DNA from: Acaryochloris marina MBIC11017
GTDB taxonomy: Bacteria; Cyanobacteriota; Cyanobacteriia; Thermosynechococcales; Thermosynechococcaceae
Assembly (NCBI RefSeq): GCF_000018105.1
Contig: NC_009927.1
Span: 150,001 to 182,000 of the forward strand
Direction of reading: 5' to 3'
Length of the DNA: 32,000 nucleotides
The notes below the pieces were generated by a model. It was not told the origin of the DNA. It saw only the letters and a list, made by a program, of their open reading frames with translations, and did not search any database. Within the stretch, counting starts at the first letter, position 1. Every line of letters begins with the position of its first letter. This document shows, in pieces, positions 14,585 through 28,474 of this stretch. Both the position numbers and the translations under genes were made by a program.

Positions 14585-15743
14585 ATGACTGTACTTCAAC
14601 TCAAGCTTCAGACGCTACGAAAAGAACTCAATGCCGCTCACCTAGAGCGCAAGTCTGTGATTGATGGCTTGCTGGCTACATTGTTGGCGAACCAAAACGC
14701 CTTGCTGTATGGGCCACCGGGAACGGGTAAAAGTTTGATACTTAGAGAGATTTGCTCTGCGATCGCAGATGCGAATTTCTTCCAGCGCTTGCTTCACAAA
14801 GCCATGTCTCCTGATGAAGTCTTAGGCCAAATCAGCCTTAAAGCATTGAAACAAGACATCATGAAGCGCAACACCAGCGGCAGACTTCAAGAGGCTCACT
14901 TGGCTTTTCTAGATGAAGTCTTTAGAGGCAATGGGGTATTGCTCAATAGCTTGCTGGAGCTGATGAACGAGCGCACCTACGACAACCCAGACAAACAGAA
15001 AAGCCCCCTTCGCTCGATAGTCGGTGCAACGAACTCGATTGACTCAGGGAGCGACCTAGAAGCGTTTGCCGACCGCTTTATTTACAGACCCTGGATTTTC
15101 GATCTAAAAAACCCCCAGCTCTACTAAGAAGCTGTTGGGTTGGACTATCAAAGGCAATCGGCCCCAGGTGAGTCAAGGTCTGATTTCATTAGCCGAACTC
15201 GATCAGATGTGCGCTGAGATTCAACAGGTGAAATTCACCGATGCCATGGTGGATGCTTTTACTGAGATTATCCATGCTCTGATCCGGGATGGCTTTGTGA
15301 TTAGTGCCCGCCGCAGAGTAAAGTTGCTGCAGCTTGTTCAGTGTTACGCCTACATCCAAGGGGACGAGCAAGTATATCTAGAGCATTTGCATGAGTTATT
15401 ACCTCAGTGCTGCTGGAAATCAAAGATTGAGGAAATTAGAGAAATCAAGAAGCTGATTGAAACCTCAGCACCCATCGCGAAAAAGAAATTAGCGGATATC
15501 GCTAAAGCTGCTCAGGGTGAAGTCTCAAGGCTGGAAGAGCAACTGAATAATCAAATGTTAGACCATACCCATCATGTCAATGCCGCTGATTTTGCCCGGA
15601 CGCAACTTACCAACTTATCCAGCAGCTTAGACAAGGTTCAGGCCGACCTATGCCGCAATGGAGCCAGCCAGAAAGCCAAAGCTGAGACCGAACTAAAAGC
15701 CCAATCAGACCGAATCAATGAGCTAGTTGAAGGCTTGTATTAA
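14585..15743 (+). pseudogene. RavA/MoxR-like AAA+ ATPase, reading frame broken by a +1 shift in an A6C5 run
   Basis: ORF 14585-15127 has Walker A GPPGTGKS, Walker B AFLDEVFRG, LLELMNER and EAFADRF. ORF 15135-15743, one frame over, continues with FVISARRRVKLLQLVQCYAYIQG...CCW, which is RavA-like (SDRRWKK...LLKDCLW). The second frame is open from 15108. The homopolymer AAAAAACCCCC lies at 15106-15116. Confidence 0.8.
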
Positions 15744-15745
15744 TC

Positions 15746-17197
15746 ATGTACACCGAACTCAAGGCACAGGACCTAAACCCCATCACCACCGAAGTCAGCG
15801 AAACCTCTAAGCTGTTTTGGCAAGACTATCTCAACTCAAATCCTGCAATGGTGGAGGTGACCTCAGAGACCAATATCAAAACCCTCAATAGCTTTGCTCT
15901 AGAAGTCTTTCACCGTCTCTATTACTCCCCCGATCCTGAATGGTTACCGGAAAAGCCAGAACATCAATGGGCGCGAGTGTTGCACAACCAGCTTAGTGAG
16001 TCTGAAGAATTCCAAAATCTAACCCTGACATGTGCGGGTGATCCATTGGGGGCAGCAATCGCCGCGCAATCCATGATCACCAATCTGTACCGACAGCTTG
16101 AAGAGGCCAGCGACGAACAGGAAATTGATGAACTGGATACCCTGAGAGCGCAGGCCCGACAAGCGAAGCGGGATGGTAGGGAGGATTTGTTTCAGCAGCT
16201 TCAAGCCCAAGGGCAGGCCATGTCCCAAGCAGCCCAAGCCTTTGCCCAAAAGCTGGAAGAGAAGGAAGGCGAAGGCATCGGCGAGAGTGTTGAGGATGCC
16301 GAGGGAGAAGTACAGGAGAAAAAAGACGAGCTAGAAGCATTGGGAATGAGCTGGGGGAATGAGTCGGGTGACCGCAATCCCACTCCCACCGGAGAGAAAC
16401 TAAAGCTTGCGGCTTTGATTGAACAGCGGCCACAACTCAAAAAGATACTAGCCCTCGCTGGAAATGCCTTGGAGACAGCCAACCGCAAACGCCGACAACA
16501 CCAGACTGAGACGGGATATGGTGAACTAGTGGGGATTACCACGGGGAATGATGTCTCACAGATTTTGCCTCAAGAGTTGGCAAGGCTTTCAGATTCCAGA
16601 CAGAAACTGAGTTTTTATCGAGACTTTCTAGAAGGTCAGTTGTTTCAGAATGACTTACAGGCCCCAGAGGAGAAGGGCAAAGGTCCGATGGTGATTTGCC
16701 TGGATTGCTCTGGATCGATGGTTAAGGGCAACCGCTTTCTCTGGTCGAAAGCCCTGATCGTTGCGTTGGTGAAGTTGGCCAACGAGCAAGAACGGGTGGT
16801 TTCGCTGGTATTGTTTGAGTCTATTTGTTACGACCCTATCTATTTCCATCCCAGAGAAGATATTGACCAGCTGATCCGATTGCTGGTCACGAGTCCCACG
16901 GATGGGGGAACCGAGTTTCAAAGACCACTGGAACAGGCCAGAGACATCATTGAGCAAGACGAGGACTACAGCGAAGCCGATATTGTCTTTATCACGGATG
17001 GGATTGCGCCATTGAGTTCTGTGTTCTTGCAAGAGTATTCAGATTCCCTAGAAAAATTGAAAACAGATCTCTTTTTATTAGAGATTGAGCCAAAGCAGGG
17101 ATGGTCAAACGAACTCAGGACGTTGGCGAGTCAGTCATGGGTAATTGATGCGAATGGCAATTTTGAGGAGTTAGGGGCTGTATTTACGGCTTGTTAG
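15746..17197 (+). CDS. VWA-domain protein, ViaA-like partner of the AAA+ ATPase
   Basis: 483 aa. The ATG is 2 nt after the ATPase stop. MIDAS motif VICLDCSGSM, then FITDG later in the protein. An acidic coiled-coil linker lies in the middle. Confidence 0.85.
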   Translation: MYTELKAQDLNPITTEVSETSKLFWQDYLNSNPAMVEVTSETNIKTLNSFALEVFHRLYYSPDPEWLPEKPEHQWARVLHNQLSESEEFQNLTLTCAGDPLGAAIAAQSMITNLYRQLEEASDEQEIDELDTLRAQARQAKRDGREDLFQQLQAQGQAMSQAAQAFAQKLEEKEGEGIGESVEDAEGEVQEKKDELEALGMSWGNESGDRNPTPTGEKLKLAALIEQRPQLKKILALAGNALETANRKRRQHQTETGYGELVGITTGNDVSQILPQELARLSDSRQKLSFYRDFLEGQLFQNDLQAPEEKGKGPMVICLDCSGSMVKGNRFLWSKALIVALVKLANEQERVVSLVLFESICYDPIYFHPREDIDQLIRLLVTSPTDGGTEFQRPLEQARDIIEQDEDYSEADIVFITDGIAPLSSVFLQEYSDSLEKLKTDLFLLEIEPKQGWSNELRTLASQSWVIDANGNFEELGAVFTAC

Positions 17198-17919: not shown

Positions 17920-20421
17920 TTAGCACGTAGCAACGGGTTGGCCAGAATTATACGCTATAAGCTCTGAGGCATTTGCACTTAAAAAAATGTTCCCCTTCTT
18001 ATCACGAATCCATCCTTGTGCTTCGACGATAGTAGGTGGGGACGCTGAGTTGGAAGATAGATTATTGTTCTCTACCCCCGAGGATCCGGGTTTCACAGGT
18101 AACTTAGAAGAAGGCGATTTTTGCTTCAATAATTGAGGTTGTCGTAAGTCTTGCCAAACAGAGGGTGGTGTTTGTAAGTGGTGAGGGCCTAATGGAATAC
18201 CACCGCGTCCAATATCCACAAAAGTGCTGTTCCCTAAAGTTTGACCTGGACGACACTTTGTAGTGATGGTTTTAGGAACAACGATTGTTTCGGGGAGTTT
18301 TTTCAAGCCATCAGGGAATAAAATTGCTACAAAACCGTTGATTTGAGGTTCATTCTGAGAAAAAGAAACAATATCGCTGAAATTAGTTAACTGGCCACTT
18401 GCTCGAAAACCAAACAGTTCCTTGGCGGTAATGATAATCTGACCACCTTTGCCCACTGAAGAGCTAGCAAAGATATCACTATTTTCAGAGGGAATCGCCA
18501 CAATTTTACTAGCAGTAATCTTGATGTTTCCTCCATCATTAATTCCTCTTCCTTCTGCAGTTATTAAGCTGTTGTTGCGCATCAGTAAATAATTTCTAAT
18601 TTGCAAATCAATATCACCACCTTTTCCAGCACTGGATGTTGCCGAAATATTCCCTTGATTTTTTAGCAAAATTTGATCTGCGTTGATATGCAAAGTCCCT
18701 GCGTTGCCTATTTCATCGTTTCTAACTGTAATTTCTGCACCATCGCTTACTCTTAGAGCTTTGGTTTGGATCGAAACACTCCCCGCTTCTCCTGTGGGGA
18801 TGGGAGAAACTTGAAACCCACTTTGCAATTCGGGGCTTAACTGAATTGTGGACGAACTAATCAAGCTGGGATCCTGGCTTCCTTGATCTACTCCACTAAC
18901 TATAATTTCATCCACAGCAGTGATAATGACGTCTCCAGCGTTACCGCCAGCGAAAGTAGCAGCATCCACCCGAGCCCCATCTTTGATTAACAAGCGCTTT
19001 GTCTGAATGAATAAATCACCTGCGTTACCACTCGCTAAACTAGAAGAAGATAATGCATTGTTAGCACCAACAAGCACGATTCCATCTGAAGCCGAAACCT
19101 TTATATTGCCTCCTTGACCAGCGGCTAATGTGGCTGATGTAACTAATCCGCCATCCTTTACCCTGAGATGCTTTGTTGTGATAATTATGTCCCCTGCATT
19201 TCCTACCCCAAAGGTGCTTGTACTGATGAAGCTCAATAAATTTGGATCAAATGATGTTCCAATTACATCAATAAACTCAGTAGCATTAATGACTAGGGTT
19301 CCTCCTGAGCCAAAACCTAGGGTATTAGCAGAAATAAGTCCCCCTTCTTTTAGTATCAGATGGGGAGTAGACAGATAAATATCACTTCCGCTTCCTGTCT
19401 CTAGAGACGTAGTAATTAAACCACTACTAGTACCAGTGGTTAGATTCGTACCAATGAGCTTGATAGAATCAGCAGCCTTAATCACCAAACGTCTTCCAGT
19501 CTGATTTCCTAGATTGCCAATTCGTATAACAGAACCATCGGTTATGGAAACTTGACCACCCTGTACCTGAATAAAACCAGTAGGTCCTCCCTCCATACCA
19601 GTGCCATCAACTAAAGCAAGCTCAGAAAGGTGAATATCACCAAATCTTTGGACATTTTGGTAATCGAAGGTCCATCCCAATGGAGAAGGAGATATACCTA
19701 CATAACCAGATTTCACTCCGCCTAATTGTATGCTCCCGCCGGGTGCTGTAAGTATACTGCCCCTCAAATCAAGATTTGTCCCTAGCAAAGCCAGTGTTTT
19801 GTTAGGTTTAACAGTCAAATCAAACTCTTGGCTACCTGTACGTCCTGAAAAAGTAACGAAAGGGTTCGTCGATGTCAATTGAAATCTTGGACCTTTCGCA
19901 ATAATATCGGCAGATCTTGAGTTGAACTGCAATCCTAGTGGCACGCCGATAGTTAAATTAGGAAGATTTTGAGGATTTTCTGCACTAAACTCAATATCTT
20001 GATCAAAGATCAGGCTGCTGGCTGTAGTTCCTATGAAAGAGCCATTGAGGTCTAGCTTTGAATGCGGGCCAAAAAATATCCCCGATGGATTCATCAAGAA
20101 CAAGTCAGCATCACCCAAAACTCCCAAAGTACCAAAGATATTGGAGCGATTGCCTCCAGTGACTCGAGTCAGAATAAGGTTGATATTACTGGGGTTATTG
20201 AAATAAACTTCCTGACCAGTTCCAACACTTAATTCTTTAAGGCTATGGAACAGTGTACTTCCCCTTGAAGCACCACCTTTGATTAAAATTCGGTTATTCT
20301 GTAGCTCAACGACTGAATTTTCTCTCAATAATGTCTGATCAGAAGTGACTTGAGCTAATCCTGATTTAAACAATAAACTCCAGATTGATAAAACACTAAT
20401 CAACAGGACTGATTTGTTCAT
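17920..20421 (-). CDS. TpsA-type exoprotein (filamentous-haemagglutinin N-terminal domain, beta-helical repeats)
   Basis: Signal peptide MNKSVLLISVLSIWSLLFKSGLAQ from ATG 20421. TPS-domain motifs LTRVTGGNRSNIFGTLGV and LFLMNPSGIFFGP. Long runs of G/N/S-rich repeats (GNAGD..I). AT-rich relative to neighbouring genes. Confidence 0.85.
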   Translation of the reverse strand: MNKSVLLISVLSIWSLLFKSGLAQVTSDQTLLRENSVVELQNNRILIKGGASRGSTLFHSLKELSVGTGQEVYFNNPSNINLILTRVTGGNRSNIFGTLGVLGDADLFLMNPSGIFFGPHSKLDLNGSFIGTTASSLIFDQDIEFSAENPQNLPNLTIGVPLGLQFNSRSADIIAKGPRFQLTSTNPFVTFSGRTGSQEFDLTVKPNKTLALLGTNLDLRGSILTAPGGSIQLGGVKSGYVGISPSPLGWTFDYQNVQRFGDIHLSELALVDGTGMEGGPTGFIQVQGGQVSITDGSVIRIGNLGNQTGRRLVIKAADSIKLIGTNLTTGTSSGLITTSLETGSGSDIYLSTPHLILKEGGLISANTLGFGSGGTLVINATEFIDVIGTSFDPNLLSFISTSTFGVGNAGDIIITTKHLRVKDGGLVTSATLAAGQGGNIKVSASDGIVLVGANNALSSSSLASGNAGDLFIQTKRLLIKDGARVDAATFAGGNAGDVIITAVDEIIVSGVDQGSQDPSLISSSTIQLSPELQSGFQVSPIPTGEAGSVSIQTKALRVSDGAEITVRNDEIGNAGTLHINADQILLKNQGNISATSSAGKGGDIDLQIRNYLLMRNNSLITAEGRGINDGGNIKITASKIVAIPSENSDIFASSSVGKGGQIIITAKELFGFRASGQLTNFSDIVSFSQNEPQINGFVAILFPDGLKKLPETIVVPKTITTKCRPGQTLGNSTFVDIGRGGIPLGPHHLQTPPSVWQDLRQPQLLKQKSPSSKLPVKPGSSGVENNNLSSNSASPPTIVEAQGWIRDKKGNIFLSANASELIAYNSGQPVATC

Positions 20422-20664
20422 TCTCATCCACATCACAGTCAGTGATTTCTATGGTTGCTGTTTCAAAAAAAAATCGCGCAGATCCCTAGGAAAGTTGTCA
20501 GAGTAAAAATGTTATTTTGCTTGAATTCTTACAAAAATTAATCTTTTCCTGGTTAAATTTTTGTGGTTACGGAGACAATACTCCTATTACTAGGTCTAGG
20601 TAGGGTAGACACTGAATAATGGTTGTGAAGCAATACCAGAATCGAGATCGCAACCCCACCCACC

Positions 20665-23789: not shown

Positions 23790-24053
23790 AATTGAACTAT
23801 GAAGCTGCGTTATCGCTATCGAGTTTATCCAACACCAGTTCAAGCCAATCGACTGGCCCAGATGTTTGGTTGCACTCGCGTAGTCTGGAACGATGCTCTT
23901 ACCTTTTGCCAACAACAGTATGCACAAGGAGGTAAATACCCTGGCTCTACAGCCCTAATGAAACAGTGTATTACCAAAGCCAAGCAAACCGAAGAACGAA
24001 GCTGGTTGTCGTCAGTATCTGTCGTTCCATTACAGCAATCTGTCAGAGACTTA

Positions 24054-24951
24054 GAGGCTGTTTGAGAAGTTTTAGTGCTCCTGCGCTAGCCTTCGAACCA
24101 TGAGTCGAATCATCGCCACATAAACAAGCGCTTCAGCCGTCCTAGTCAGCACCTCATAATCTTTATTAAGACGTCGAGACCACAACAACCATCCAAACGT
24201 CCGCTCTACAATCCATCGTTTGGGAATAACCTGAAACCCCGCTAGATTATCTGAGCGTTTGACTACTTCCAAGACATATTGAAAACGGTCCATTACCCAC
24301 TTCATCAAAGCTTGTCCTTGATAGCCTGCATCAGCCCATATCCGAACTAGACGGGACAAACTCGCACCTTGGCGTTGAGCTTTCCAAAACAGTATTTTGG
24401 CCCCTCGTTGGTCAGAGATATTTGCAGCGGTGACCATCACCATCAGAACCAGCCCCAAAGTATCAACGAGCACATGACGTTTACGACCTTTGACCATTTT
24501 CCCACCATCAAACCCAATCAAGTGACACCGAGGATTGCCGACTTTGACCGATTGAGCATCGCAGATAGCGGCACTGGGACTGGGATGACGGTCTTCACTC
24601 ACCCGCACTTGCATGCGTAGATGTTCATTGATTTGACTCCAAGTCCCATCATCGCGCCACCTTCGAAAATAGCTATAGACCGTTGACCAACAGGGAAAAT
24701 CATGAGGTAGTTGTCTCCACTGACAACCTGTAACCACGAGATAAAAAATGGCATTGAGAACACTGAGCATATCAGTGGTGCGAGGTCTACCTCCAGGTTT
24801 AGCAGCAGGAATCAAAGGCTCAAGTAATTCCCATTGCAGGGTGGTGAGGTCGCTATCATATGCTGTAGGCATTGCTCTCTAGGTCCTGTCCAGTGTTTGT
24901 GTATTGACAGATTAGTACCTTGAGAGCTTTACTCACTTCTCAAACAGCCTC
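24054..24951 (-). mobile_element. IS5-family insertion sequence (898 bp)
   Basis: Perfect 17-bp terminal inverted repeats: GAGGCTGTTTGAGAAGT at 24054-24070 and its complement at 24935-24951. The 3-bp duplication TTA lies at 24051-24053 and 24952-24954. Confidence 0.92.
24072..24872 (-). CDS. IS5-family DDE transposase (266 aa)
   Basis: N-terminal LTTLQWELLEPLIP...GRPR...NAIFYLVVTGCQWRQLP, the IS4/IS5 N-terminal domain. DDE core DAQSVKV...WADAGYQG...VERTFGWL. Confidence 0.9.
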   Translation of the reverse strand: MPTAYDSDLTTLQWELLEPLIPAAKPGGRPRTTDMLSVLNAIFYLVVTGCQWRQLPHDFPCWSTVYSYFRRWRDDGTWSQINEHLRMQVRVSEDRHPSPSAAICDAQSVKVGNPRCHLIGFDGGKMVKGRKRHVLVDTLGLVLMVMVTAANISDQRGAKILFWKAQRQGASLSRLVRIWADAGYQGQALMKWVMDRFQYVLEVVKRSDNLAGFQVIPKRWIVERTFGWLLWSRRLNKDYEVLTRTAEALVYVAMIRLMVRRLAQEH

Positions 24952-25914
24952 TTAGACGTTGCTTTCCGCAACTTCTTCAGCTCTGTATCAGGTAAACGCA
25001 AAGGTCCAAAAGTGCGGATGCCCCGGTTTAAGAAACGGCATTCAACCCAGACAGCTCGGTTTACCCTAAGGGGGTTTTCAGTGGGCACGAAGCTGTATCT
25101 AGCTAAGATTGGCTCCATTAAAGTTCAGTGGTCTAGGGCATTACCCTCAGAGCCATCCTCAGTAACCATTATCAAAGACCCATCAGGCCGATACTTCGCT
25201 AGCTTTGTTGTCGAAAAAGAGCCAGAGTTATTGCTCTGGAATGATACATCCATCGGCATTGATTTAGGGATAACCACCTTTGCCACCCTCAGCACAGGCC
25301 AGAAAATAGAAGCTCCTAAGCCATTAAAGCGATATCTCAAAAAACTAGCCCGCTTACAAAAGACCTTGAGCCGCTGTGAAAAAGGGTCAAATCGCAGGCA
25401 GGCTGCAAAACTCAAGGTCGCACAACTCCATAATCGGATTAAAGATATTCGAACCGATTTTCTGCACAAACTCAGCACTCAGTTGATCATCGAGAACCAA
25501 GAGATCAATCTAGAAGACTTGAATGTGTCAGGGATGCTCAAGAATCGCAGATTGTCTAAAGCGATCAGTGATTTAGGATGGCGACAATTTAGAACCATGC
25601 TGGAAGCTAAAGCCATCATGTATGGTCGTGATGTCAACATCATCAGTTGCTGGGAACCCACCAGCCAAACCTGCTCATGCTGTGGGCATCGAGAAGGACG
25701 TAAACAGTTGGGGATTAGAGAGTGGCAATGTCTCAATTGTGGCGTTTTCCACGATAGGGATATTAATGCTGCATTGAATATCAAAGCCGCCGGGGGGCAC
25801 TCGGAGGCGATAAACGGATGTCGGAGAGAGTGTAAGTCTGAAGTCAATTCAGCCGTTCTCAGTGATGCGTCAACTCGTCTAGTAGATAAGCAGTTAGAAC
25901 TGTTTGCTAGCTAG

Positions 25915-25950
25915 GGAATCCTCGTGCCTTTAGGCCGAGGAGGATGTCAA
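25915..25950 (+). ncRNA. terminal stem-loop of the probable TnpB omega-RNA (reRNA) / right end
   Basis: GGGAATCCTCGTGCC-TTTA-GGCCGAGGAGGATGTCAA lies directly after the tnpB stop. The stem pairs 25920-25928 with 25933-25940 and has one bulged U. This matches the conserved right-end hairpin seen downstream of cyanobacterial tnpB genes. The scaffold probably starts inside the ORF 3' end. Confidence 0.5.
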
Positions 25951-26149
25951 AGCTCTATTTTAGAGAGACAGTAAGCAATCAAATCTTTACCCAATCACCC
26001 TATAACATCAGGGAACAATCCAGGATTCGAAATGATCAAGATGGCATTTTTAGGAATGGTGGCGATCAACTGATCACGGAGCTTACCCATGATTCGGCAA
26101 CGGGAGCCTATGCAGGGATATTTAATGTTGGCCTTGAACTGAGATAAAG

Positions 26150-26457
26150 TCTCATCTGGTAAAAGGCCAGGGTTATCCTGCCTGACATTGAGAGAATGGT
26201 TCCCGGATGAAGTAAAGTGCATCTCGTCCGTCATGAACCCCTCCCTACCCTCCGGGGTTGAGGAAGGGGCTTGATTGGTCTCAGCCGATCACTAAGTCGT
26301 GACTAGACCATGAGCTGAATACAGGTACGTAGGTCCGGGCGTTTCCCAAACTCGGACACTCTGCAAGCCTTCTGAGAAAAGGCGTAGCGTAACGGCTAGA
26401 AATCCTGGATTCAGTGGTCTTAGGGACATACAACTCATTAGAGGATTATCTCCAACA
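26150..26457 (+). ncRNA. candidate IsrB omega-RNA (HEARO-like) region; 5' boundary uncertain
   Basis: It sits directly 5' of the IsrB-like ORF on the same strand and has no credible ORF. Nested hairpins lie at 26277-26309, 26332-26357 and 26367-26383. The call rests on position and structure only. Confidence 0.45.
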
Positions 26458-27621
26458 ATGATTTTAAGAGTGCCAGTCATATCACCAGAGGGTCAGCCTC
26501 TAATGCCCACCAAACCTAGCCGTGCCCGTCGCATGGTCAGAGATGGTAAAGCTGTCGGCAAATGGAATGATGCTGGAGTCTATTACATCCAGCTCACAGC
26601 AGATCCATCAGACACCCAGACGCAACCCATTCATTTAGGTTGTGATCCTGGCAAGTCCTATTCAGGTATCGCTGTTCAATCTGCTCATTTCACCCTATAT
26701 ACCGCTCACCTTGTTCTACCTTTCCAGCGGATTAAAGAACGCTTGGGAGCTGCCGTCATCAAGAACGGCAAAGTTATCAAAAATGTTCGGGGTAGGGCAT
26801 TACAACGTCGAGTCAGGCGAGGACGGCGCATCAACCGCAAGGTGCCGTTTCACTTAAGAGCACATCGTCAGAAGCGATTTAACAATCGTCGCCAACCCAA
26901 GCTTCCTCCATCAATTAAAGCCTCAAGGCAGATGGAGCTTCGAGTGATCAAGGAACTGTCAAAGATTTTCCCCATCACTTCGATTGTCTATGAAGTCGTC
27001 AAGGCTGATGTAGACAGAACATCAGGTCGCAAAGGTGCTAAATCAGGGAAAGGCTTCTCCCCCGTTATGACTGCACAATATTGGGCGATGGAACAACTAG
27101 AAGCCATTGCTCCAGTCATAAAACGTCATGGCTGGCAAAAGGATGGCAACGGCACTAGCCAGATCCGTAAGCACTTGGGCCTAATCAAATGTAAAGACAA
27201 GAAAGCTCAGGCACCTGAGGCCCATGCTGTCGATGGCATTGCCTTGGCTGCAAGTCAGTTTACTCGATATCAAGCTAGTCAATCTGACTCCATGGATTGG
27301 GTTGGTTCTATAGATGTTACGCCTTGTCAATTCAGGGTGATTACCCGTCCTGCCTATTTCAGGAGAGCGCTGCACTTTGATAATCCCGGCAAAGGGGGGA
27401 CTCATAAGCGAAAGGGCGGTACTGTTACCCCCTGGGTCTTTCGCTCTGGAGATTTAGTGGTGGGCGAAAAAGCGGGCAAGGTATTCCGTGGATGGGTTGG
27501 CGGCTATACAAAAAAAGCTAAATCCGTATCCCTCTATGACCATAACTGGCGACGAATCGGGAAGTTTGTTGTTTCTAAATGCACACTACTTCGGAGGTCA
27601 AATAAGTTATGCGTAGCCTAG
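26458..27621 (+). CDS. isrB: IsrB-type protein (IscB homologue lacking the HNH domain)
   Basis: 387 aa. The order is PLMP motif (EGQPLMPTKPSRARRMVRDGKA), RuvC-I LGCDPGKSYSGIAV, bridge helix RRVRRGRRINRK..RFNNRRQPK, RuvC-II SIVYEVVKADVD and RuvC-III EAHAVDGIALA. There is no CxxC/HNH segment between RuvC-II and RuvC-III. Confidence 0.8.
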   Translation: MILRVPVISPEGQPLMPTKPSRARRMVRDGKAVGKWNDAGVYYIQLTADPSDTQTQPIHLGCDPGKSYSGIAVQSAHFTLYTAHLVLPFQRIKERLGAAVIKNGKVIKNVRGRALQRRVRRGRRINRKVPFHLRAHRQKRFNNRRQPKLPPSIKASRQMELRVIKELSKIFPITSIVYEVVKADVDRTSGRKGAKSGKGFSPVMTAQYWAMEQLEAIAPVIKRHGWQKDGNGTSQIRKHLGLIKCKDKKAQAPEAHAVDGIALAASQFTRYQASQSDSMDWVGSIDVTPCQFRVITRPAYFRRALHFDNPGKGGTHKRKGGTVTPWVFRSGDLVVGEKAGKVFRGWVGGYTKKAKSVSLYDHNWRRIGKFVVSKCTLLRRSNKLCVA

Positions 27622-27654
27622 AAGATTGCCAGCCTTCGTCTGGCCGCTATCCCC

Positions 27655-27681
27655 CTCCGTCTTGCTTCGCTGAAGACGGAG
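27655..27681 (+). terminator. 9-bp hairpin CTCCGTCTT-N9-AAGACGGAG downstream of isrB
   Basis: Perfect stem. A U-rich stretch (GGTTTTGTT) lies about 10 nt further on. A second hairpin, GGCCTCAC...GTGAGGCC, is at 27748-27777. Either could be a terminator or an element right end. Confidence 0.4.
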
Positions 27682-27862
27682 ATCCACGCGGTTTTGTTGG
27701 GTCGATGCTGAACACAATTTACGCCAAAGCATCGGCAAGTAACTTTTGGCCTCACTCGGCCAGCGCTGGGTGAGGCCTATCGCCAGTTTCAAATCTGAAT
27801 CGCTCGTGAATTTTCTGATACCGACACATTCTCTTTAATCTCAATAACAGAAGGTTTTTATC

Positions 27863-28474
27863 ATGGCTAACAACCTGCTCATCATTGACCCGGCAGAACT
27901 TCAGCCAGTCAACCACCTCAGGCCTCGACAAGCCTTGCTAGCAGCTTTAAGGACAACGCACAAGGCAGGCTGGCACCTGGCAATGATTTCAGATCAATCC
28001 AAAATCGCAAAAGGAGAGCGCAGCTTAACCGAAGTTCTAGATTGCCATCAAGCCGCAATGAATCGATATGACCAATTAATTGGCGTAAGTATGTTCACGA
28101 CAAACCAGGGCAGTGAAATGGTTGTAACACGGTGTCAAATCCCTGATATCGGCATATTCAATACTCAATCGACCTTAACTCAGAAGATTGCAAAGTCCTT
28201 TGATGCAACAATCACAGGCGATTGGTTTTTACCGCCAAACCCCGGCTTGCTAATGGCTTGCATGGCGTTACACAGTTCCACATTTGAGACGACTGTAATG
28301 GTCGGCACTGGCAGATTTGATGCCTTGGCTGTTCGCAACGGTCTGTTGTTAATGCATCCTGAAACCTTCGAACAGAAAGGGGTCACTGTGGGGCACTCCG
28401 CTCATTCAGTACAACAAACAACCCTGCAGATAAGGGACATGTTAGGGCAGAACTATTCTCTAACCGAAAACTAG
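27863..28474 (+). CDS. hypothetical protein, possibly a degenerate HAD-IIIA-like fold
   Basis: 203 aa. LLIIDPAE...AMISDQSKIAKGE...PPNPGLL...MVGTGRFDALA loosely follows the GmhB/PNKP phosphatase motif order. The second Asp of the DxD motif is missing. Confidence 0.4.
   Translation: MANNLLIIDPAELQPVNHLRPRQALLAALRTTHKAGWHLAMISDQSKIAKGERSLTEVLDCHQAAMNRYDQLIGVSMFTTNQGSEMVVTRCQIPDIGIFNTQSTLTQKIAKSFDATITGDWFLPPNPGLLMACMALHSSTFETTVMVGTGRFDALAVRNGLLLMHPETFEQKGVTVGHSAHSVQQTTLQIRDMLGQNYSLTEN

Follow-up and report, generated by a model that had tools for sequence, protein, structure and literature searches.

A predicted non-autonomous IS200/IS605-family element encoding IsrB and its omega-RNA in Acaryochloris marina MBIC11017

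Introduction

To our knowledge, no RNA-guided nickase of the Cas9 lineage smaller than IsrB has been described. The main limit of IsrB as a tool is the choice of the transposon-adjacent motif (TAM). The subject of the present analysis is an isrB gene and the mobile element carrying it in a stretch of 32,000 nucleotides of Acaryochloris marina MBIC11017 (contig NC_009927.1, positions 150,001 to 182,000 of the forward strand), which is referred to below as the window and whose own numbering is used for all coordinates.

IsrB nicks the non-target strand of DNA, and CwIsrB and DsIsrB, both from cyanobacteria, are active (PMC9581776). In the IsrB of Desulfovirgula thermocuniculi (DtIsrB), the G of the TTGA motif is read by R323 and its fourth base, A, by Q326, and the Q326R mutant also accepts G at this fourth position (PMC9581776). 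The omega-RNAs of group B are defined by a pseudoknot between stem-loops SL2 and SL5, and a second, the nexus pseudoknot, joins SL4 with the linker between S2 and SL7 (PMC9581776). Meers et al. reported that the TAM abuts the canonical left end (LE) of the transposon, that IscB and TnpB cut donor joints, and that most elements of the IscB/IsrB family lack a nearby TnpA (bioRxiv 10.1101/2023.03.14.532601).

The results indicate that positions 26230-27696 very probably constitute a non-autonomous IS200/IS605-family element, which encodes only IsrB and its omega-RNA and would work by the guided nicking described below. The family and fold of the protein, its catalytic residues, the structure of the RNA, the boundaries of the element, the TTGG junction, an empty allele and the absence of TnpA were established in this work.

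Protein Encoded by the Element

The isrB gene (26458-27621, forward strand) is an open reading frame (ORF) of 387 aa. An earlier note, made by a model from the letters of the window alone, had listed the motifs of its product, and all of them were found at their places: the PLMP motif (residues 14-17), RuvC-I (LGCDPGKSYSGIAV, residues 60-73), an arginine-rich bridge helix (about residues 116-145) whose segment RRVRRGRRINRK...RFNNRR sits between RuvC-I and RuvC-II, RuvC-II (SIVYEVVKADVD, residues 175-186) and RuvC-III (EAHAVDGIALA, residues 254-264). They are followed by a C-terminal TAM-interacting domain, in which R366 and K369 correspond to R323 and Q326 of DtIsrB in a pairwise alignment. 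Within the PLMP motif, M16 and P17 are invariant among the relatives, and the region aligns to the PLMP domain of DtIsrB. The RuvC residues D63, E179, H256 and D259 are intact, each being kept in 120 or 121 of the 121 aligned homologues, and R366, the counterpart of the TAM-reading R323, is Arg in 119 of them.

The Pfam family RRXRR (PF14239), which is the N-terminal family of IscB and IsrB, matched the protein at E = 6.7e-47, and no HNH family of Pfam matched it at E <= 1. Between E179 and H256 there are 76 residues without a CxxC pair. The NCBIfam IscB equivalog covered the protein with positions 3-164 of its 314 only, corresponding to its N-terminal half, and scored 89 bits against a cut-off of 175. 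When all PDB sequences were compared, the best match was DtIsrB (8dmb_P, E = 1.3e-38, query residues 2-382), and the IscB entries aligned by sequence to about residues 5-190 only. An IscB with an HNH domain was also considered and was rejected on account of the absent HNH match, the half-length match of the IscB model and the partial IscB alignments.

A structural model of the protein was obtained using AlphaFold2 from an alignment of 33 sequences, database proteins only, with a mean predicted local distance difference test (pLDDT) score of 74 and values of 84-95 across residues 1-60. A Foldseek search with this model placed 8dmb_P first (E = 2.6e-28, TM score of 0.70 on the target, 32% identity), and the IscBs formed a second tier. 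Sequence comparison and the predicted fold together confirm the reading of the earlier note, in which the ORF is a full-length IsrB without an HNH domain; the profile and structure comparison that it had proposed as a check returned no HNH domain and an intact set of RuvC catalytic residues.

The N-terminal pattern M-x-(L/R)-V-P-V is kept in about 80 homologous loci, and therefore 26458 is taken as the true start. The NCBI protein P0001, recorded as an RRXRR domain-containing protein of Acaryochloris marina, is 100% identical and starts at Met16, which is 15 residues late; the exact protein is on record from a single contig. The number of homologues at E <= 1e-3 amounts to 2,520, and the window IsrB belongs to a large cyanobacterial clade.

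Among the relatives, two loci (L065 and L066) have Cys at the position of the RuvC-III Asp, and one (L040) has Leu at that of the RuvC-I Asp. In five others (L013, L049, L064, L072 and L045), a truncated IsrB frame of 52-297 codons lies beside a well-kept omega-RNA scaffold. These truncated or residue-substituted relatives may be decaying or catalytically dead copies.

Omega-RNA Scaffold and Guide

The region upstream of the ORF was compared over 80 cyanobacterial loci, which encode relatives 49-73% identical to the window protein. The similarity among the aligned upstream regions starts sharply at 26230 (GTCA; GTCATGAACCCC...) and extends to the start codon, and the sequence 5' of 26230 is unrelated between homologous loci. 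At the gathering threshold of Rfam, which is 83 bits for HEARO (RF02033), no match was found in the window or in 13 related cyanobacterial loci. In E-value mode, HEARO matched 26230-26434 over its full model length and with the same 5' end, at 27.6 bits and E = 0.0033. The lack of a covariance-model hit, which the earlier note had named among its refuting conditions, is approached in form only. Because the HEARO match was only sub-threshold, de novo covariation over 43 relatives was used instead and was decisive.

For this purpose, 43 non-redundant cyanobacterial scaffolds were aligned using MAFFT, on sequence only. RNAalifold returned 47 pairs for them, with compensatory changes in 41. The structure tested, which consists of 58 pairs in 11 helices and includes SL2 and one pseudoknot, was paired in 94.0% of the cells, compared with 34-46% in slid controls, where the 3' partners were moved by 1-3 columns. 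Double (compensatory) changes were observed in 49 of the 58 pairs, and none of 500 shuffles reached any of these measures. The nexus pseudoknot was paired in 98.6% of the cells and occurs in the compensatory variants UCUC/GAGA and UUCC/GGAA. The four core pairs of the adaptor pseudoknot were paired in 83.7% of the cells against 18-53% when slid, and their covariation score was 0.66 against at most 0.15. The window copy keeps 58 of the 62 consensus pairs (93.5%), slightly above the family median, and a leave-one-out nhmmer profile, built without the window, recovered 26231-26455 at E = 3.8e-42.

By this covariation, the 228 nt at 26230-26457 on the forward strand, which are also the omega-RNA-proximal end of the transposon, are a genuine group-B IsrB omega-RNA scaffold in which both IsrB-type pseudoknots are present. 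The enclosing stem S1 is formed by 26230-26236 and 26297-26303 and holds SL1 (26238-26269) and SL2 (26271-26291). It is followed by S2 (26306-26309 with 26416-26419) and S3 (26315-26322 with 26407-26414), by S4 (26329-26331 with 26362-26364) around SL4 (26334-26356), and by SL5 (26367-26383), SL6 (26385-26398) and SL7 (26434-26443). A small covarying hairpin at 26443-26453 contains the Shine-Dalgarno (SD) sequence. In the nexus pseudoknot, the SL4 loop UCCCA (26344-26348) pairs with AGGGA (26422-26426), which lies between S2 and SL7; in the adaptor pseudoknot, the SL2 loop UCUCAG (26279-26284) is complementary to the SL5 loop CUGAGA (26372-26377), all four segments being on the forward strand.

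The expectation of the earlier note that a guide RNA is encoded on the same strand directly 5' of the ORF agrees with the covariation over the 43 relatives and with the group-B layout. The upstream region is also ORF-poor and structured, as had been claimed, and far beyond chance, while its length of roughly 300 nt must be reduced to the 228 nt of the scaffold, since 26150-26229 is unrelated flank. Two of the three hairpins proposed there correspond to SL4 (26332-26357) and SL5 (26367-26383). The third, 26277-26309, does not hold, GACC at 26306-26309 being paired with GGUC at 26416-26419.

The predicted guide segment, AAGTAAAGTGCATCTCGTCC, occupies 26210-26229 on the forward strand and is flanking DNA outside the mobile element; its length of 20 nt was assumed by analogy with DtIsrB (PMC9581776). 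A transcript over guide and scaffold is predicted. Alternatively, the upstream structure could act in cis, as a 5' leader regulating the translation of the isrB mRNA, for instance, by means of a hairpin sequestering the SD sequence, with no trans-acting guide RNA being made. The position of the SD region within a covarying hairpin at the 3' end of the structure (26443-26453) would fit such a leader, as would the fact that no separate promoter or terminator was found for the RNA; in a scan of 25900-27900, terminator-like sites were no commoner than in shuffles. However, the layout equals that of the solved IsrB omega-RNA, with S1-S4, SL1, SL2, SL4, SL5, SL7 and both pseudoknots. The HEARO match, weak as it is, spans the whole model and has the same 5' end, and the structure starts exactly at the transposon boundary. 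Moreover, the PLMP domain of DtIsrB contacts the SD sequence within the ribonucleoprotein (RNP), so that the two roles are compatible (PMC9581776). A purely cis-acting leader is therefore considered extremely improbable, and the structure is treated below as the scaffold of an omega-RNA.

The curated HEARO model does not reach this cyanobacterial omega-RNA clade, as judged from the scores above. Weak Rfam matches to HgcC, snoU61 and SOX2OT were dismissed as chance or unrelated, and a standalone omega-RNA was found neither in the rest of the window nor in the loci. Two relatives (L017, 3059-3327, and L028, 4608-4881) have insertions of about 45-50 nt in the scaffold, that of L017 being a palindromic segment near SL2; extra hairpins are therefore tolerated in the peripheral loops.

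Element Ends and Empty Sites

The mobile element spans 26230-27696 (1,467 bp) and adjoins TTGG at 27697-27700. In the relatives, the 3' end consists of one or two hairpins, then GGGGATTCC CGCGAAnAnG with a short spacer, and then TTGA or ATGA, where the similarity stops. The corresponding ORF-distal end of the window element (27622-27696, forward strand) has two hairpins, a small one at 27628-27644 and the conserved subterminal one at 27655-27681, the latter being followed by GATCCACGCGGTTTTG; the junction reads ...GAAGACGGAGATCCACGCGGTTTTG-TTGG-GTCGATG. Because the TAM abuts the canonical LE according to Meers et al., the ORF-distal end is the LE, defined on the opposite strand, and the omega-RNA end is the canonical right end (RE). 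TTGG on the forward strand, which is CCAA on the strand that defines the LE, is the transposon-adjacent motif, serving as insertion target and predicted TAM.

Uninterrupted sites were found for both flanks. The plasmid pREC1 of A. marina MBIC10699 is 99.5% identical to the window up to exactly 26229 and has no IsrB element; its empty site reads ...AAGTAAAGTGCATCTCGTCC-TTGG-ATTTCC... (CGTCC-TTGG-ATTTCC) and lies inside an alpha-amylase gene. The A. marina S15 plasmid NZ_CP064925 (L090, 2996-3078) is homologous to the right flank from TTGG onward and also lacks IsrB; the site reads ...AAAAC-TTGG-ATCGATGCTGAAC... (ATCGATG) and lies at the 3' end of a hypothetical gene with a terminator-like hairpin. 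Neither junction shows a target-site duplication relative to these empty sites. Hairpins are present at both ends of the element, namely, SL1 and 27655-27681, and form a nearly identical pair in relatives such as L004. The subterminal hairpins on one strand, the lack of terminal inverted repeats and the short motif abutting one end are the characteristics of the IS200/IS605 family.

Outside the element, 27701-27777 on the forward strand contains the 3' remnant of an interrupted host gene (...VDAEHNLRQSIGK before the stop) and a terminator-like hairpin at 27748-27777. Since this hairpin follows the stop codon of the hypothetical gene in the S15 plasmid, it is, on that comparison, host sequence. 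The earlier note had taken both 27655-27681 and 27748-27777 as possible marks of the right-hand boundary; the former is the conserved subterminal hairpin, and the latter is found in the plasmid without IsrB.

The flanks are chimeric at 26229/26230 and 27696/27697, with matching sites at L089 4081-4110 and L090 2990-3078: the left flank is the alpha-amylase site of pREC1, and the right flank is the unrelated hypothetical gene of the S15 plasmid. When the flanks were rejoined to recover an interrupted ORF, no clear answer was obtained because of this chimerism.

A Y1 TnpA (PF01797) was absent from the 30 longest non-nested ORFs of the window (at least 110 aa), and a tblastn search with a Pfam-validated cyanobacterial Y1 TnpA gave nothing in the window at E <= 10. 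Over about 90 loci, the same search gave only two or three matches, none adjoining isrB. With no TnpA in the element or the window, the copy is therefore non-autonomous, in agreement with the earlier note.

TTGG and the Residue Reading the Fourth TAM Base

The residue equivalent to Q326 of DtIsrB, K369 in the window protein, is variable. Over the 121 homologues, it is Gln in 113, Lys in four, Arg in two and Glu in one, with one gap, and two of the four Lys sequences are the window protein itself (entered as "win" and as P0001). The identity of this residue follows the sequence at the end of the transposon. Roughly 50 loci with Gln and a readable end terminate at NTGA. TTGG accompanies Lys in the window and in a second, independent case, L091, whose protein is 58% identical and whose end is CTGTTGG; Arg is found with GATGG (L058 and L073), and Leu with GTTGT (L041 and L047). 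The closest relative, P0002, has Glu at the reader position and its contig stops before the transposon end, so that it provides no data point. No recognisable transposon end was found downstream in L092 (Lys) and L093 (Arg), which are uninformative, and the end of L062 (Arg) is uncertain.

This correlation supports the prediction that TTGG is both the insertion motif and the nuclease TAM of the window element. It further suggests a natural rule based on a single residue, in which Gln, Lys, Arg or Leu at the Q326 position goes with A, G, G and T, respectively, as the fourth TAM base. Instead, the TTGG at 27697-27700 might be coincidental or might belong to the element as its final four bases; it would then be neither insertion target nor TAM, and the true TAM would be the family-typical NTGA. 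Most characterised IsrBs do prefer NTG(A) (PMC9581776), the argument from K369 is indirect, and L077, which bears Gln, may end in GATGG. Such a reading must contend with two independent uninterrupted sites, one homologous to each flank, in which TTGG lies precisely at the junction and for which the chance is about 1/256 each, with a residue-to-base correlation that extends over four residue types, and with the independent Lys variant L091, which also ends in TTGG. An NTGA motif is accordingly regarded as very unlikely for this element, and TTGG is retained as its predicted TAM.

A mosaic was observed at 27250-27700, which covers about residues 266-387 of IsrB and the ORF-distal end, in comparison with the loci L081 and L084. 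Between the window and P0003 from Acaryochloris CCMEE 5410, the proteins are 92-95% identical over residues 16-265 and the DNA is 88-96% identical over the omega-RNA and the 5' part of the ORF, falling to about 50-60% where the TAM-interacting domain and the transposon end are compared. Between P0003 and P0004, the pattern of identity is the reverse. It is conceivable, though we would place it slightly on the doubtful side, that the TAM-interacting domain, which contains Lys369, travels as a cassette together with the neighboring transposon end and TTGG and that this cassette has, in Acaryochloris, a history unlike that of the omega-RNA/RuvC half, the residue at this position forming the code for the fourth base. 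If this is true, one recombination could switch the TAM of the nuclease and the target motif of the transposase together.

Proposed Mechanism of the Element

Transcription from the left flank would produce an RNA composed of the guide of about 20 nt (26210-26229) and the 228-nt group-B scaffold. IsrB would bind this omega-RNA, and the complex would recognise DNA matching the guide and then TTGG, after which the RuvC site would nick the non-target strand; nicking of this strand by the window IsrB is predicted from the behaviour of characterised IsrBs. The element-free locus reads guide match and TTGG and would be a target, whereas the occupied locus reads guide match and GTCA and would not. As the element lies directly 5' of TTGG, any allele without it is a predicted target, and precise excision would recreate the guide match followed by TTGG. 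Nicking of an allele without the element would promote the re-copying of the element by recombination, that is, retention or homing, and movement would need a Y1 TnpA supplied in trans. Transcription, nicking, the use of TTGG as the TAM and the role in homing or retention are thus expected by analogy, with DtIsrB, CwIsrB and DsIsrB for nicking and with IscB and TnpB for the targeting of donor joints.

Several points weigh against this mechanism. IsrB is a nickase, and the nucleases for which homing or retention has been demonstrated, TnpB and IscB, both make double-strand breaks. The two flanks are derived from two different TTGG sites, and the copy has therefore been rearranged since insertion; recombination between two copies, deleting the DNA between them, is suggested as the cause. 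At the left junction, no gene other than that for alpha-amylase is interrupted, and it runs antisense to the element. The end hairpins are less alike in the window than in relatives such as L004, and the TnpA-mediated mobility of this copy may be impaired. A scan of 25900-27900 for sigma-70-type promoters gave no promoter-like site, which is uninformative on transcription. With respect to the TAM, the end of the Gln-bearing L077 is ambiguous (TTTTTGA-TGG or GATGG), and the link from Lys to G consists of two natural cases and the engineered Q326R.

The same chimeric flanks, dissimilar hairpins and missing promoter-like site could be expected of a stranded, rearranged IsrB copy, an immobile relic that is intact either because its decay is recent or because the RNP is kept for another function of the host or plasmid. 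No TnpA is present in the window and TnpA is rare near the relatives, five relatives have truncated ORFs beside intact scaffolds, and the exact protein occurs on a single contig only. Yet the frame is full-length and keeps the four catalytic residues and the TAM-reading Arg, the conservation of pairs in the scaffold exceeds the family median (58 of 62), and the arrangement of guide, scaffold and TTGG is kept, so that the element's own excision product is still a predicted target. The lack of a nearby TnpA is normal for active IscB/IsrB elements (bioRxiv 10.1101/2023.03.14.532601). A relic is therefore considered unlikely, and a non-autonomous element with guided nicking is preferred.

Neighboring Genes

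The neighborhood is plasmid-like and rich in mobile DNA, with a split TnpB gene, a Mutator-family transposase, and DUF3768 and DUF6876 genes. The TnpB (IS605 OrfB) gene at 23799-25914 is split by an IS5-family insertion at 24064-24950, which carries a DDE transposase gene (24072-24872, reverse strand), has GAGGCTGTTTGAGAAG as its terminal repeats and is accompanied by a duplication of 3 bp (TTA); pREC1 of A. marina MBIC10699 has this TnpB gene in unbroken form, at 99.5% identity. At 25840-25962, Rfam gives a weak match to HgcC (17.9 bits, E = 0.32), which reaches from the 3' part of the TnpB ORF into the sequence just beyond. This is the expected place of the omega/reRNA of TnpB, and the HgcC identity is improbable.

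Further genes at 14585-17197 and 17920-20436 are unrelated to the IsrB element. A MoxR-like AAA ATPase, whose gene seems to be divided between two ORFs, is followed by a VWA-domain protein, and the two resemble a pair of the MoxR-vWA ternary-system type. Beside them lies a gene for an 838-aa protein with a TPS secretion domain.

Significance

The element is a biologically ordinary member of a described family and reveals no new principle; it stands out chiefly by its predicted target motif, TTGG in place of TTGA. What is specific to this work is the anatomy of the element, the target formed by the empty site, the pairing of Lys369 with TTGG, the mosaic C-terminal TAM domain and the blind spot of Rfam. 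The window copy supplies an intact protein and a scaffold whose 5' end is defined, and a sister plasmid provides a natural protospacer with a predicted TAM. The residue rule described above, in which the fourth TAM base is A with Gln, G with Lys or Arg, and T with Leu, could, if true, widen the targeting range. Because the curated HEARO model misses the cyanobacterial omega-RNA clade, such elements are under-annotated, as is seen in the NCBI record, which is named only for its RRXRR domain and begins 15 codons late.

Comparison with Known Systems

The HEARO RNA (RF02033) shares with the window RNA the location directly 5' of an IscB/IsrB ORF, the GUCA... start, the enclosing stem and the pseudoknotted core, although its model scores the window at 27.6 bits, below the 83 bits of the gathering threshold.

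The ISGst5 IscB element of Geobacillus stearothermophilus (Meers et al., bioRxiv 10.1101/2023.03.14.532601) likewise has the omega-RNA upstream of the nuclease ORF at one end and the TAM at the other, a donor joint that reads guide match and TAM, and a family of which most members are without a nearby TnpA. Unlike the window protein, its IscB contains an HNH domain and makes double-strand breaks, with TTCAT as the TAM in the LE orientation. For ISGst5, retention was demonstrated by experiment, whereas for the window element, which encodes a nickase, it is predicted.

DtIsrB (8DMB; Hirano et al. 2022, PMC9581776) has the domain order in common with the window protein, namely, PLMP, RuvC-I, bridge helix, RuvC-II, a short HNH-like linker, RuvC-III, WED and the TAM-interacting domain. 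It aligns over the full length, is the best fold match and has R323 at the place of R366, and its omega-RNA, like that of the window, contains S1-S4, the SL2-SL5 adaptor pseudoknot and the SL4-linker nexus pseudoknot. However, the identity is only 32%, the scaffold is 262 nt in DtIsrB against 228 nt in the window, and Gln326 with TTGA stands against Lys369 with TTGG. The window protein of 387 aa is also longer than the IsrBs of about 350 aa (PMC9581776), the extra length being an insertion at about residues 76-112 that consists of a beta-hairpin and a loop, as reported for cyanobacterial IsrBs.

CwIsrB (Crocosphaera watsonii) and DsIsrB (Dolichospermum sp.) are cyanobacterial like the window IsrB, and have group-B2 omega-RNAs (PMC9581776); a homologue on a Dolichospermum plasmid is 46.8% identical to the window protein. 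Both are active nickases with NTG-type TAMs (PMC9581776), so that the view of the earlier note, which rightly treated the family as already described, must be tempered where it called few members characterised. Both proteins carry the RuvC beta-hairpin and RECL loop insertions, and their omega-RNAs contain the SL2-SL5 and SL4-linker pseudoknots and no SL3 (PMC9581776). The cleavage substrates used for them had ATGG as the TAM in the case of DsIsrB and TTGA in that of CwIsrB (PMC9581776).

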